Shown piece after piece: positions 11,201-13,877 of a DNA stretch of 13,877 nucleotides. Made by a program: the position numbers. The stretch's first letter is position 1; the number at the start of each line of letters is the position of its first letter. The stretch is from a virus (lineage: Duplodnaviria; Heunggongvirae; Uroviricota; Caudoviricetes), in IMG/VR virus record IMGVR_UViG_2671181033_000010; one strand, given 5' to 3'.

Positions 11201-13877
11201 AGCAACGCAACCTGACGGGCAACGGTTACGCGCTTCGAGTTCCGTCCAGGCGGTTACGTGGATGATTTGGGATTCTGACGCGCCAAAGATGATAAAGCGC
11301 CAGACAAAGTAAGGGCGTGCGGATACAGCCATGTGAAAGGCCTCCTTGTACTGTTTTAAGGAGTCACCGCTGGAGTTCCTACGCTCATAAAGGGCGGTGA
11401 CGCTGGCGGGGGTAGGAATACCGGCGTACAAGGAAACCGGCCAGCCTTTCGGCTGCCCCACCAGCGCCACCATAGATACAGTACGGGCCTTGCCGCTGGG
11501 TATGGTTGCGCGATGGCATGACACAAAAAAAGACGCTGGGCGCGCCTGTGTCGCCTTGTACTGATTAAACGGGTTCCTACGCCCGATCCCCGTTTTATAA
11601 GGGATAACCTCAGTATATGCCGCTTTTTTGCTTAAGTGGTCGGATGTGTTGCGAGAGAAGTTTGTGCGAAAAATACCTGCGTTTTCTTTGAAAGCACATA
11701 ATAACATCACGTTATTTATGTTTATGCAGTATGTCGCAAAGCGACCTGAATCATCACGCAAATTACAACCATAAAAAATACCTGTGCTGTGATATGAGGT
11801 ACTACAGCGCACCGCTTTACGGGTACAGACAATGACAAATGAAGAACTACAGGAAATCGCATTATCCATACTTGAGCGACAGCGCGAAAAAGTACGCCTG
11901 GAACGCGAGTCTTTGCTTAATCCCTCTCCTCTCACCAGACCAAAACGATTTGCGCTTGAGGCATTTCTGGACAAATACCCACGGCGATTAATCTCGCCTA
12001 AAAACCGATAGCGATCCGCTTTTGCTTCTCTGACTCCATAAAACGAATAACAACCATCAGCGCCGTGGTGTGAGGTGCTGCGTCGCTCCGCTGTACAGGA
12101 AATAAGTATGGATTTACCACCAGAAGATGAGAAATTTTTACGACAACTACAACACCAACTACTCATGGATGCCATTGTCGAGCAGCAAACAGGGAGCAGC
12201 CCCATTGATTCATCGCTGAATAAAAAGGCCGCCTCCCGTTTTATTGAAAACAGGATAAGGCGCGGAAAAACATGTGATGACGAGTCAAAGGCATCACATA
12301 CAAAAGCTAAAAAATTTGCCCTTGAAGATTTTGTCGAGAAATACCCACGGCGGTTAAAAGCCACTAAAAACCGACCGCCTGGCTGATAGCCTTGTCCACC
12401 AGCTACACTCATGGCATAGTTGGTGATGCGCTTGATTTCCTTTATCTCCACTGGCGACCCTTTCGTGGTCGCCTTTGTTTTGCCTGCCATTCCTGCATCA
12501 TGCGGATATTCGCGCCGTACAGGGCCACCAGCGCGATAATTTAATAAAACCTCCTTCTGATAATGCTTAACTTGTTTCATACGCTCAGCAGCGAAATGGC
12601 TCACGATATGGTGCATGTAATCAGAATGGTTGAGGCTCAGTTGTGCGAACGTATCCGCCGTGTCGATGTACAGGGCGGCAGCGTTGCGGATGTCAGGCAT
12701 GTTCATGTTCTCCCAGACGACGGGCCAACCAGCGCTGGTAATCATCGGTGAGTTCTGTGAAAAGATTATTTATTGCATCAGTTCTCCATTCCTCAGCTTC
12801 TGACTTAAATTTATCTTTATCACTTATGTCTATAAGAAAATCATCAAAATCAGAGTCTTCGAAAATATCTTTATCTGCAAAATTATTCCAATCCTCCCTT
12901 AACTGATCCAATGTGGACTCTTTAAATCCACAAGGATATACAGAGTAGGCCTTTTGTCCCTGTTGAAGAGTTACACCCCCCATTGTGTGAATACATAAAG
13001 CAACATATGGGGCGCAAGCTGTGCCATACTCCTTAAGAAAGTTAATTGCCGTATCAGATAATATTTCGCAAAGTGCTTGTTCGTATTTAATTTGTTCCTC
13101 ATGCGCACTAAACCATAAAAACACGCGTTCGTAGCGATAAGCATCGTTGTTAACTAATTCCGCACCAGGAGTACCTATTCCTGATGTATCGATAGCAATT
13201 GCTTTAACCGTATCAAAATCAGCAGAAAACCACTCACCAGAACGGCGTTCTGATGTAAGTTTTGCATGAATAGCTAATTCGACTTGTCCGTAATTAACAA
13301 ATGGCCCTAACACCTCGACTTTAGTGATTACTATGCCGCTACCAGTGGATAGCTGTTTCATTCTGGCTGAAACATTTCTGGTTTTTCCAACCTTAACTAA
13401 TCCAATGTCAGAAAGCGCCACATAAATATAACCGCCTTCATGATTGGGAGGGATAACATAATTACGCATGATTCACCCCCAGAGACGGCGCTGACGTCAT
13501 CAGGCTGGCGAACGTCTCCATGCGGCGGGCAACCTCCCGCACCGCTTCGGTCGGTGTCATGCCGCTCTGTATCGCCTCGTCAAATGCTGCCTGCTCGATT
13601 TTCTGCATGACTATCAGTAAGCCTAACTGTTGCTCGCTGGCTGTGCTGCGTTCTCCAGCCACCAGACCTGTAACACGGTTCTCTGCGCGTGCCAGATTAA
13701 TGTAATGGTGACGTTCTGCGCCCAGTGCTTTGAGTCCGTCACGGCTTTCGTGATAGCCTGGCAGATATTCGCGGCGGACTGGTTCAGCGGCGCGATGCTT
13801 CGCGAATGCCTTTGTAACATCCAGCTTGAACTGGTTGAACCGCCCCGGGTTTCCTGGAGAGTATTTTATCTGTGAAC

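Follow-up and report, generated by a model that had tools for sequence, protein, structure and literature searches.

A rare GIY-YIG-type (T5orf172) gene located where related E. coli satellites carry an antirepressor gene

By sequence comparison, a rare and uncharacterised GIY-YIG-type (T5orf172) gene is located exactly where related E. coli satellites have an antirepressor gene. The gene was found in a window of 13,877 nucleotides, the whole stretch of DNA analysed here (IMG/VR record IMGVR_UViG_2671181033_000010). The predicted product combines a nuclease-type T5orf172 (GIY-YIG superfamily) domain with an orphan acidic domain at the C-terminus, and the gene fills a standardised slot, coupled by translation, in the alpA-led early string of an EcCIMP1-type satellite (PICI, P4-related). 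T5orf172 nucleases are emerging as both weapons and selfish passengers in phage-satellite conflict and have been studied almost only in Vibrio ICP1/PLE; the family described here extends the domain to satellites of E. coli, Salmonella, Providencia and Xenorhabdus. In this family T5orf172 is joined to an uncharacterised domain and takes the place of an antirepressor, codon for codon, in a slot with standardised junctions. With slightly more confidence than doubt, we regard the gene as a phage-derived, homing-endonuclease-like nuclease cassette, acquired horizontally as a single gene and made on satellite induction; we infer its expression timing, catalytic activity and target.

The T5orf172 gene and its protein

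The gene (12693..13469, minus strand) is an intact, single-copy ORF for a protein of 258 aa. Its product is 100% identical to copies in intact elements and to a RefSeq entry labelled 'GIY-YIG nuclease family protein', a label that conceals a satellite-specific gene; NCBIfam gave no informative match. An earlier note, made from the sequence alone, had proposed a T5orf172-like N-terminus, and profile searches agree: residues 13-92 (13194..13433, minus strand) matched both MUG113 (PF13455; 43.7 bits against a gathering cut-off of 22.3, 4e-11) and T5orf172 (PF10544; 39.5 bits against a cut-off of 20, 9e-10) in Pfam, and the domain has the GIY-YIG alpha/beta fold. Two residues, R36 and E79 (in GEWF), were invariant among the nine homologues compared. 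We take these to correspond to the catalytic Arg and Glu of I-TevI (R27/E75), a match made by motif. The equivalent glutamate of the T5orf172 nuclease Odn, E180, again matched by motif, is required for Odn activity (PMC8263062).

The remainder of the protein consists of an orphan acidic domain (residues 105-258; 12696..13157, minus strand), which combines helices with a three-stranded sheet and ends in a long helix. These 154 residues have a pI of 4.3-4.8 and no match in Pfam, PDB or BFVD, a fold without known counterpart, and the nine homologues share no invariant Cys or His in this part. The C-terminal third is as acidic as had been noted, with a pI of 4.26 and 21 D/E among the 68 residues from 191 to 258. 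As judged by dN/dS (about 0.2 for the gene, 0.11-0.32 across both domains), both domains are under purifying selection. The fall in GC content also described earlier is sharp: the gene body has 38.8% GC (GC3 30%), compared to 57.7% (GC3 60%) in the rha fragment upstream and 58% in the flank, and GC returns to 55.8% in the final 45 nt. Based on this contrast (39% vs 58%) and on distant relatives in phages, the gene appears to be foreign.

The satellite and its slot

The element is arranged as int-alpA-...-ash/C4-primase-PerC, the same architecture as the experimentally mobilised PICI EcCIMP1, which bears out the idea of a satellite-like element. As in other PICI-type elements, int, an alpA-type regulator and the primase/replicase are co-oriented, without phage structural or lysis genes, in both the intact element L002 and EcCIMP1; the AlpA match to Pfam scored 25.2 bits against a cut-off of 21. 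This satellite type is the 'Type C' PICI in the scheme of de Sousa et al., and helper-dependent excision, replication and packaging have been proven experimentally only for EcCIMP1 with phage Kapi1 (PMC11773190).

The gene order is int, alpA, the slot, the Ash ORF with isrK and the C4 immunity RNAs, small ORFs and primase. In all seven contexts (L002, L008, L011, L019, Salmonella L004-L006, Providencia L007 and Xenorhabdus L010), the T5orf172 gene follows alpA and precedes isrK/C4 or ash and the primase, and a CATGnnTRA junction is found at every module boundary. The usual occupant of the slot is an AntA antirepressor, and occupants elsewhere include AntA, Rha and even a P2-type capsid gene. 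Occupants differ among related elements, and the site is a variable slot, in keeping with the earlier idea of a cargo position. Defence cargo in particular is not supported by the location: the reported PICI defence hotspots are the 5' and 3' ends and the region downstream of pri (PMC11364771), and the alpA-to-isrK/C4 slot lies outside them.

The locus had been described as a two-gene minus-strand operon with overlapping stop and start. The overlap is present, with the upstream stop TAA at 13462-13464 and the T5orf172 ATG at 13467-13469 (ATGCGTAA), but the string is longer than two genes: the start of a third ORF, annotated 'ash family' (11162..12700, minus strand), overlaps the T5orf172 stop (ATGCCTGA). 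Counting the T5orf172 gene, no fewer than three ORFs coupled by translation therefore run from alpA to the isrK/C4 immunity-RNA region. The third ORF, presumably comparable to P4 Eta, is long and runs across immunity RNA genes, with Pfam Phage_ASH matching its residues 362-461 over isrK and C4; the 'Icd-like' CDS nearby is, like this 'ash' CDS, a long ORF that overlies immunity RNA genes. All three RNAs are on the minus strand: an isrK-type sRNA (11526..11605; Rfam RF01394, 51.8 bits against a gathering score of 50) and two copies of a C4-type antisense (immunity) RNA (Rfam RF01695), at 11390..11477 (81.3 bits) and 10924..11011 (71.7 bits), each adjoined by a 50-nt perfect repeat. The loop of C4 copy 1 is complementary to 11343-11351 and to isrK 11554-11561. 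On its downstream side, this early gene string ends with a DUF927 primase/replicase (7662..9800, minus strand; Pfam 1.9e-42). We considered and rejected the idea that C4 or isrK controls the T5orf172 or rha region by antisense pairing: across 9700-13877, complementarity to the three RNAs in that region amounts to chance 8-mers, and the real 9-10-nt targets adjoin the RNA genes themselves. No RNA family was detected within 12300-13877 at E<=0.1, and the window contains no tRNA genes. A promoter/terminator scan of 10500-13877 was uninformative because it returned fewer promoter-like sites than shuffled sequence.

The left operon of P4 reads vis - eta/kil - cI RNA - epsilon - alpha, and immI of P1 reads c4 - icd - ant. 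Like these, the element combines an AlpA/Vis-type regulator, a long ORF over a C4/CI-type immunity RNA, small ORFs and a primase, and leader translation is integral to the arrangement. Unlike P4, in which nothing lies between vis and eta, the element has a multi-gene variable slot in this interval, and it lacks psu, delta and sid genes.

Within the yicC-integrated backbone, the slot holds Rha and AntA (L028, L030), Rha and a deletion (L029), or Rha and T5orf172 (L002 and the window), a presence/absence polymorphism at one site between identical junctions in collinear elements. DNA alignment of L028 with L002 (BLAST), together with the translations, shows that at the sequence level the T5orf172 body has replaced the AntA body as an allele, exactly and in frame. 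The first four codons (MRNY; 13458..13469, minus strand) are common to the AntA allele and form the 5' cassette junction, overlapping the rha stop, while the last 14 codons (QRWLARRLGEHEHA and the stop; 12693..12737, minus strand) are likewise common and form the 3' junction, which contains the start of the next ORF. Synonymous differences between the alleles in this tail suggest protein-level constraint; a similar tail is found in EcCIMP1 AntA, and the motif QRWLA(R/K)R(L/M) is common to T5orf172 and AntA proteins (QRWLA(R/K)RL in the AntA of the yicC-integrated elements and of EcCIMP1). The AntA/AntB gene of EcCIMP1 and of the yicC-integrated E. coli PICIs (PMC11773190) thus has the identical position and the same coupling junctions. 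In contrast, the T5orf172 protein has no AntA domain (PF08346) by Pfam search and no homology to AntA across its body of ~240 residues; hhalign gave a probability of 5.8% and aligned the last 17 residues, so that any likeness is confined to a tail of 14-17 residues.

The T5orf172 gene is carried by 23 of 5426 complete E. coli genomes, compared to 129 with this AntA body. A hyperdivergent patch (12532..12728) adjoins the 3' edge of the T5orf172 body: of 46 differences from the RM10042 element, 23 fall in these ~200 nt and a single one in the 1110 nt from 12729 to 13838, which comprise the body and the rha fragment. The patch fits a recombination boundary, and ordinary mosaicism could also explain it. 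A perfect 29-nt direct repeat flanks the cassette at the Salmonella locus only; no long direct repeat was found around the E. coli cassette. None of 50,697 phage records contained the full-length gene. Distant relatives that match it over its full length are located in the late regions of phages, between lysis genes and terS, the type of neighbourhood that is most typical for T5orf172 homing endonuclease genes (PMC10448857). The family occupies the same slot across a deep divergence (~40% identity between E. coli and Providencia or Xenorhabdus), and this constancy fits a satellite-useful function at least as well as selfish homing.

The rha fragment and the IS-mediated inversion

Alignment with the intact 239-aa RM10042 protein identified the upstream ORF as rha' (13462..13835, minus strand), the C-terminal 124 codons (residues 116-239) of a Rha-family regulator. 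Most of the Phage_pRha DNA-binding domain is gone from the fragment. Its frame is open up to the window end, the first in-frame ATG/GTG/TTG being a GTG at 13662, and the N-terminal half of rha lies ~15 kb off, at 263-611 of L001. The upstream gene is indeed cut by an IS, as had been suspected: the right end and terminal inverted repeat of a ~1.3-kb IS3-family element (13836..13877, minus strand; end sequence TGAACCGCCCCGGGTTTCC...) start exactly at 13836, and RefSeq annotates an 'IS3 family transposase, programmed frameshift' directly past the window end. We presume the element to be IS629-like. Junction comparison revealed a 3-bp target-site duplication (ACC on the minus strand; 13833..13835), the rha/IS junctions reading ...ATCAACC / IS-left and IS-right / ACCAGTTC compared to ...ATCAACCAGTTC in the intact gene. 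At the other end of the window (1..221, plus strand) lie the right end of another copy of this IS, in inverted orientation, and then a dinD fragment, and dinD is in two halves with a matching GAC duplication. The window is DNA inverted between two IS copies, as the matched target duplications demonstrate.

An IS3-family insertion split rha at codon 116, and recombination with the second IS copy in dinD then inverted the whole segment. In this way the T5orf172 string lost its connection to int, to alpA and to the 5' half of rha, and therefore also to its presumed native promoter region. In this strain int, alpA and rha-5' are indeed apart from the replication genes, and the suggestion of an operon inactivated or rewired by the IS is upheld to the extent that it is cut off from the alpA-side promoter region. 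Through the inversion, this strain has very probably lost helper-dependent excision, replication and packaging of the element; the same rearrangement was found in only two genomes.

In the intact Rha orthologue, Phage_pRha matched residues 33-127 at 29.0 bits, just under the cut-off of 29.9; PHROG matches were 'transcriptional regulator' (2.7e-8) and 'Rha-like' (2e-4), and a precomputed PF09669 match is present in many Rha homologues. Rha forms at least 220 protein clusters across Enterobacterales, mostly without a T5orf172 neighbour; it is common in the satellites of this order and is an independent slot gene, much commoner than T5orf172. In E. coli, rha is upstream of the T5orf172 gene in at least 21 of 23 carriers (all 21 that were examined, 13 with the window allele and 8 at 87% identity), and also in L011. 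However, five of the seven contexts, those in Salmonella, Providencia, Xenorhabdus and two E. coli lineages, lack rha beside the T5orf172 homologue, and outside the rha-carrying E. coli elements the homologues are preceded by alpA or another small ORF. The rha body looks as though it had been inserted after the conserved leader peptide and ahead of the T5orf172 body. Beyond the domain family, this Rha has no homology to the phage Rha+ANT protein encoded beside a distant T5orf172 relative, and it has none to EcCIMP1 hyp143, the other 'first slot gene'. Recovering the upstream gene from intact homologues thus succeeded, yielding the 239-aa Rha, but the consistent pairing expected of a dedicated two-gene module did not emerge.

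Candidate functions of the T5orf172 protein

In intact elements, we favour a sequence in which the protein would be produced only once a helper phage turns on alpA-driven transcription; we infer this timing by analogy with EcCIMP1 alpA and with the P4 left operon. Its GIY-YIG domain, as predicted from sequence, would then cut DNA. As a homing-endonuclease-derived element, the gene may spread or persist by allelic replacement at the slot, where the T5orf172 body has replaced an AntA body in frame with the first 4 and last 14 codons kept; its product may attack the DNA of the helper, a competitor phage or a rival satellite; or both may apply. As for the acidic C-domain, it would contact a protein partner or control the activity of the nuclease, rather than read DNA sequence.

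Phage T5orf172 homing endonuclease genes (ICP1 gp53/121/130/165/174 and T5-like phages; Barth et al. 2023, PMC10448857) encode the same nuclease domain family. Like them, the satellite gene is sporadic among near-identical genomes, possibly located at a genetic-exchange boundary, low in GC and cassette-like, and its distant relatives adjoin terminase genes. Nearly all phage T5orf172 homing endonucleases carry Zn-finger/CapR, DUF723 or DUF4397 modules (PMC10448857); the satellite protein has no CapR, DUF723 or DUF4397 Zn-finger repeats and carries the orphan acidic domain instead. The gene also differs in being single-copy, in a satellite early regulatory string and in frame with conserved leader and tail codons. 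With no recognisable sequence-specific DNA-binding module, no invariant Cys and an acidic C-terminal half, a classical free-standing homing endonuclease is therefore a weakened reading. Odn (ICP1 gp88), a T5orf172 nuclease of chimeric build which cleaves the origin of the PLE satellite (PMC8263062), shares the conserved Arg and Glu, the setting of phage-satellite conflict and a modular fusion, its nuclease being joined to a specificity domain gained by recombination. Unlike this gene, Odn is phage-encoded and anti-satellite and has a RepA_N DNA-binding specificity domain, whereas the satellite-encoded protein has a second domain without fold match. Odn, CapR and NixI are precedents for homing-endonuclease-derived nucleases in satellite-phage conflict.

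Four other accounts were weighed against the nuclease cassette. The one suggested originally, an anti-phage defence or helper-sensing module of one or two genes that the satellite carries as cargo, now seems improbable; in it, Rha would be the sensor or specificity partner and T5orf172 the effector. Defence cargo is known from satellites (PMC10085698, PMC11364771), most E. coli carriers have rha ahead of the gene, and a distant phage relative follows a Rha+ANT gene, but that Rha+ANT shares no more than the domain family with this Rha, the slot is outside the reported hotspots, other lineages carry the gene without rha, most Rha clusters lack T5orf172, and the rha body looks inserted. The defence-profile search (PADLOC-DB v2) gave only the candidate PDC-S57 (E 1.4e-8), for which no literature was found; the match has no full-length correspondence, being limited to the T5orf172-type domain at profile positions 18-89 of 212, and neither the rha fragment nor intact Rha matched. 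NixI/StiX of the Vibrio PLE (LeGault et al., bioRxiv 10.1101/2021.07.12.452122) offer an earlier case of a satellite nuclease paired with a small protein: a homing-endonuclease-derived effector, encoded by the satellite and expressed on helper infection, which makes them a possible model, by analogy, for the action of the T5orf172 gene. However, NixI is an HNH/N nickase and not GIY-YIG, with no sequence or positional homology, and StiX is a conserved component of the PLEs of toxigenic V. cholerae, whereas the T5orf172 gene has no such conserved tie to Rha. Because the supposed partner is a common, unrelated rha broken by an IS, the gene is better described as a swappable single-gene cassette than as a two-gene defence system. 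We give as little credence to a domesticated, non-catalytic regulator whose T5orf172 domain solely binds DNA, as was first suggested for Bro-N/KilA-N/T5orf172 proteins, and which controls satellite or helper transcription. The initial description of T5orf172 was from viral regulators in which it accompanies Bro-N/KilA-N DNA-binding domains (cited in PMC8096241), the gene is located among regulators (alpA, rha, ant), and CapR exemplifies satellite domestication of homing endonuclease parts (PMC8096241); yet CapR retained the Zn-finger and lost the T5orf172 domain, the reverse of this protein, and the catalytic-type Arg and Glu are invariant over a deep divergence.

A functional substitute for the antirepressor, which would turn on or manipulate the helper prophage like AntA and the P4 derepression protein, is unlikely but deserves more weight than those two. 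The acidic C-domain and shared tail might bind AntA's partner, or DNA breaks might trigger SOS and thereby prophage induction. Such a role would agree with the exact allelic alternation with AntA, the constrained QRWLA(R/K)R(L/M) tail, an acidic, non-DNA-binding-like C-domain under purifying selection and the helper-interaction genes (AntA, Rha, the P2-type capsid gene) that otherwise occupy the slot. Against it, homology to AntA is confined to the short tail, and the conserved catalytic-type residues suggest that nuclease activity itself matters. Slightly more doubtful is the broader conjecture that the alpA-to-C4 interval is a standardised 'plug-in' slot (leader peptide, QRWLARR tail, CATGnnTRA junctions) for helper-manipulating effectors swapped in frame; the T5orf172 protein would then be a new kind of effector, a helper-activated nuclease whose acidic domain senses or binds a phage protein, and it would induce the helper prophage or destroy helper or competitor DNA. 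If the protein, as nuclease cassette or otherwise, does act on the helper phage, satellites would have a new strategy, and one found in the bacterial host that has been studied best, and the fixed leader and tail of the slot lend themselves to easy testing by cassette swap. The last account concerns the state of this locus and not the function of the family: in this strain the gene is rather probably a decaying passenger, a silent remnant without current function, because the inversion detached it from the alpA/promoter region and crippled the satellite. The matched target duplications, the split of int, alpA and rha-5' from the replication genes and the confinement of the rearrangement to two genomes are all consistent with decay. 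On the other hand, read-through from the IS or internal promoters may drive the gene, and its ORF remains intact and identical to the copies in intact elements.

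A nuclease-type gene of foreign composition

The T5orf172 gene (12693-13469, minus strand; 258 aa) is a nuclease-type gene of foreign composition that is under purifying selection. The window is 100% identical to the E. coli 2013C-4974 chromosome. The ATG of the gene overlaps the TAA of the upstream frame (ATGCGTAA, 13462-13469). GC content is 38.8% in the gene body (GC3 30%) versus 57.7% in the upstream fragment (GC3 60%); over its final 45 nt the T5orf172 gene climbs back to 55.8%. An earlier note, made from the sequence alone, was correct on the ORF coordinates, the overlap, the open frame, GC, the acidic C-terminus and the IS end at 13836. 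The T5orf172 domain it had proposed was recovered by profile search: residues 13-92 match Pfam MUG113 (43.7 bits, cut-off 22.3) and T5orf172 (39.5 bits, cut-off 20), and the protein genuinely belongs to the T5orf172/GIY-YIG domain family.

Five residues, Y16, K26, R36, E64 and E79, are invariant among homologues down to 40% identity. Motif matching equates R36 and E79 with the Arg and Glu that GIY-YIG enzymes use for catalysis. Odn, a T5orf172 nuclease, requires the Glu equivalent to E79 (PMC8263062). Modelled alone, the C-terminal 154 residues adopt a confident fold (pLDDT 86, pTM 0.76) with no match in PDB, BFVD, Pfam or PDB sequences, and the alignment of homologues contains no conserved Cys or His in this domain. 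The domain is acidic, with a pI of 4.26 for residues 191-258. Because dN/dS is 0.11-0.32 in the nuclease domain and C-domain alike, both are functional.

The family is small, comprising ∼10 clusters at 90% identity. In a search of 1.84 billion representatives, only three 50%-identity clusters reached E≤1e-30, and the remaining ∼580 matches cover the nuclease domain only. GTDB representatives add one further species, Xenorhabdus beddingii. Of 50,697 phage records, none contains the gene in full length.

An in-frame slot in the early string of a satellite

The intact element sits between yicC and dinD, with all genes in one orientation: int, a hypothetical gene, an AlpA-family HTH gene, rha, T5orf172, an 'ash/Icd-like' gene, small ORFs, primase, SSB, ProQ/FinO, three PerC genes and a Q antiterminator. 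The isrK sRNA and two C4 antisense RNAs (Rfam) lie directly downstream of the T5orf172 gene. An 'ash family' CDS starting at 12700 (minus strand; 513-codon ORF) overlaps the T5orf172 stop at ATGCCTGA, and its Pfam Phage_ASH match falls exactly over isrK and C4. The long ash ORF recalls the P4 left operon, in which the CI immunity RNA lies under the eta/kil ORF. The whole open frame (11159-12745, minus strand; 528 codons) encloses isrK and both C4 RNAs (10924-11605) and is labelled in RefSeq as an 'ash family' pseudogene and as 'Icd-like' proteins. Sites of 9-10 nt complementary to the C4 loops lie next to each RNA and within isrK (11343-11351, 10882-10891, 11554-11561 and 11572-11580); duplication of the C4 module is evident from a 50-nt repeat without mismatches (10832-10881 and 11292-11341). 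The earlier description of a satellite-like element is borne out, since its genes are laid out as in EcCIMP1, an E. coli PICI under the master regulator alpA for which induction and packaging by phage Kapi1 were demonstrated experimentally (PMC11773190).

Within this early string, upstream of the immunity RNAs, the T5orf172 gene is a rare allele of an in-frame slot otherwise occupied by an antirepressor. On the yicC-integrated backbone, the site after rha has three states: L028 and L030 have a 264-aa AntA antirepressor there, L029 and L003 what remains after a deletion, and E. coli RM10042 (L002) and the window the T5orf172 gene. Shared by the AntA and T5orf172 alleles are precisely four codons at the start (MRNY) and fourteen at the end (QRWLARR[L/M]GEHEHA, then stop); between these, a 737-nt body is swapped in frame for a 719-nt body. 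The tail motif is also found on the AntA of EcCIMP1, and its variation is synonymous, indicating constraint at the protein level. The T5orf172 body is present in 23 of 5426 complete E. coli genomes, each time as one chromosomal copy; the AntA body (≥80% coverage) is present in 129 and rha in 66.

Module boundaries in the slot are uniform: the gene ends in ...H(A/V) and a stop, and the next ATG lies within CATGnnTRA behind a GGGGG/GGGAG motif. In Salmonella enterica, a perfect 29-nt direct repeat of the slot junction, CGCCTGACCGGGGGCGACCATGCATAACG (L004 7982-8010 and 8814-8842), flanks the T5orf172 cassette exactly on both sides, which suggests that the cassette may be inserted or excised by junction recombination. 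This repeat duplicates the end of the AlpA-like gene together with the coupled start codon.

The slot is empty in the P4-like satellite L012; in L013 and L014 it is filled by two genes, one hypothetical and one annotated 'P2 family major capsid protein'. In these two dsdC-adjacent P4-like elements of E. coli, the capsid gene interval (L013 4929-6816; L014 4928-6815) lies between an alpA-type HTH gene and the C4/Icd region, and an Ogr/Delta gene follows the DUF927 primase; both may be capsid-encoding, P4-related satellites. The 'cargo position' of the earlier note thus holds in that the slot is variable, but the slot lies inside an alpA-led early string whose usual content is helper-interaction genes, and it is not among the reported PICI defence hotspots (PMC11364771).

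The upstream rha gene and its interruption

Upstream of the T5orf172 gene, the frame is open to the window end, with no ATG, GTG or TTG upstream of the GTG at 13662. RM10042 and like intact relatives encode a 239-aa 'Rha family transcriptional regulator' in this position. The window fragment corresponds to Rha residues 116-239. Residues 1-116 are encoded ∼15 kb away, where they adjoin another copy of the same 1.3-kb IS3-family element in the opposite orientation. As the earlier note held, the upstream gene was cut by an IS; the break falls within the Phage_pRha domain (residues 33-127; 29.0 bits, under the cut-off of 29.9).

The two IS copies bounding the window (window 1-221 and 13836-13877) lie at 611-1922 and 15537-16846 of the wider chromosomal locus. 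A 3-bp duplication, ACC, is common to both rha junctions, and another, GAC, to both dinD halves. These matched target duplications prove that the window is a segment inverted between the IS copies, splitting dinD and rha; its history is thus IS insertion into rha, IS insertion into dinD and IS-IS recombination inverting the DNA between. Only two complete genomes have this rearrangement. In 2013C-4974, the T5orf172 and replication genes are now cut off from int, alpA and the 5' half of rha, and this T5orf172 copy is probably silent, a matter separate from what the gene does in intact elements.

Intact loci yielded the full upstream gene, rha, but no steady pairing with T5orf172, and the operon partnership proposed earlier was not upheld. 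Only two of seven contexts have rha upstream, the window/RM10042 lineage and L011. In the other five (the E. coli lineages L008 and L019, Salmonella L004-L006, Providencia L007 and Xenorhabdus L010), the T5orf172 gene follows alpA or an unrelated small ORF, and isrK/C4 or ash and then primase lie downstream. Additionally, Rha of the window type forms at least 220 clusters across Enterobacterales; what usually comes after it is AntA, ash with nothing between, or a gap. Judged by these neighbourhoods, rha is not a dedicated partner.

Where rha is absent, the T5orf172 homologue starts with an N-terminal leader of 20-33 residues, MKxxxxPVQGQGFxxPE. In rha-containing elements this leader forms the N-terminus of Rha, so the rha body seems to have been inserted between leader and T5orf172 body. 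The same 50-nt leader opens genes annotated AntA/AntB in other E. coli. This conserved leader of ∼17 residues heads the first slot gene whatever its kind (Rha, T5orf172 or AntA), and a leader-headed first ORF after alpA is seen in L002, L003, L007, L008, L011 and further genomes of E. coli; the leader may act as a peptide, as a translational signal or as a DNA/RNA site.

Possible roles of the cassette and accompanying satellite genes

We lean towards a nuclease cassette derived from a homing endonuclease, which would persist or spread by allelic replacement at the slot and/or attack helper, competitor or rival-satellite DNA. By analogy with EcCIMP1 and P4, the gene would be expressed only once a helper phage activates alpA-driven transcription; translation through the slot would matter, which would account for the conserved coupling junctions. 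The protein would then cut DNA, with the acidic C-domain acting in protein binding or regulation. The core of the C-domain recurs in two distant relatives (P0013, P0031), both encoded in the late region of a phage or lambdoid prophage, where they sit between the lysis genes and terS; one comes directly after a Rha+ANT gene. The lysis-terS neighbourhood is the most enriched for T5orf172 homing endonuclease genes (PMC10448857). Additionally, the window and RM10042 differ at 1 position over the 1110 nt covering the rha fragment and T5orf172 gene versus 23 over the 200 nt directly past the 3' edge of the gene body; this could be ordinary mosaicism, yet would fit the recombination boundary described for such nuclease genes. 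The main weakness of the homing-endonuclease derivation is that no DNA-reading module is recognisable in the protein, whereas phage T5orf172 homing endonucleases nearly always have one (PMC10448857).

The tail shared with AntA raises an alternative in which the protein substitutes functionally for the antirepressor, with helper induction through that tail or through SOS; we regard this as unlikely. A defence system, formed by T5orf172 alone or with Rha, is improbable: no full-length model match, conserved operon or hotspot location was found. We consider a non-catalytic regulator similarly doubtful. Lacking one defining feature of homing endonucleases, the DNA-binding module, and these three of defence systems, the protein is filed under neither.

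Its nearest known counterparts are homing endonuclease genes of the T5orf172 family in ICP1-like and T5-like phages; Odn, a nuclease directed against satellites; NixI, a nuclease encoded by a satellite, together with its partner StiX; and AntA as occupant of the same slot. New here is that a satellite carries a T5orf172 protein fused to an orphan domain, at a site where the alternative allele encodes an antirepressor. A specialist would find the cassette not very surprising, yet it offers a clean, testable E. coli case, and the standardised slot may have wider use.

Three related satellites carrying the T5orf172 gene have an Rfam 'int-alpA RNA' motif between int and alpA (L004 6749-6816, L008 6694-6761, L010 4504-4573). 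The satellite also has, on the minus strand of the window (1680-2078, 4166-4735 and 5941-6387), genes for a Q-type antiterminator, for up to three regulators of the PerC family and, next to the SSB gene, for an RNA chaperone of the ProQ/FinO family. PerC-family regulators are relatives of LEE regulators of pathogenic E. coli, and the PerC homologue of EcCIMP1 repressed LEE1 (PMC11773190). Near the distal satellite end, between the PerC genes and the Q antiterminator, lies a YeeE/YedE sulphur-transport family gene (2356-3594, minus strand; Pfam Sulf_transp 9e-41), likely metabolic cargo; none is annotated in the corresponding place of the RM10042 element.
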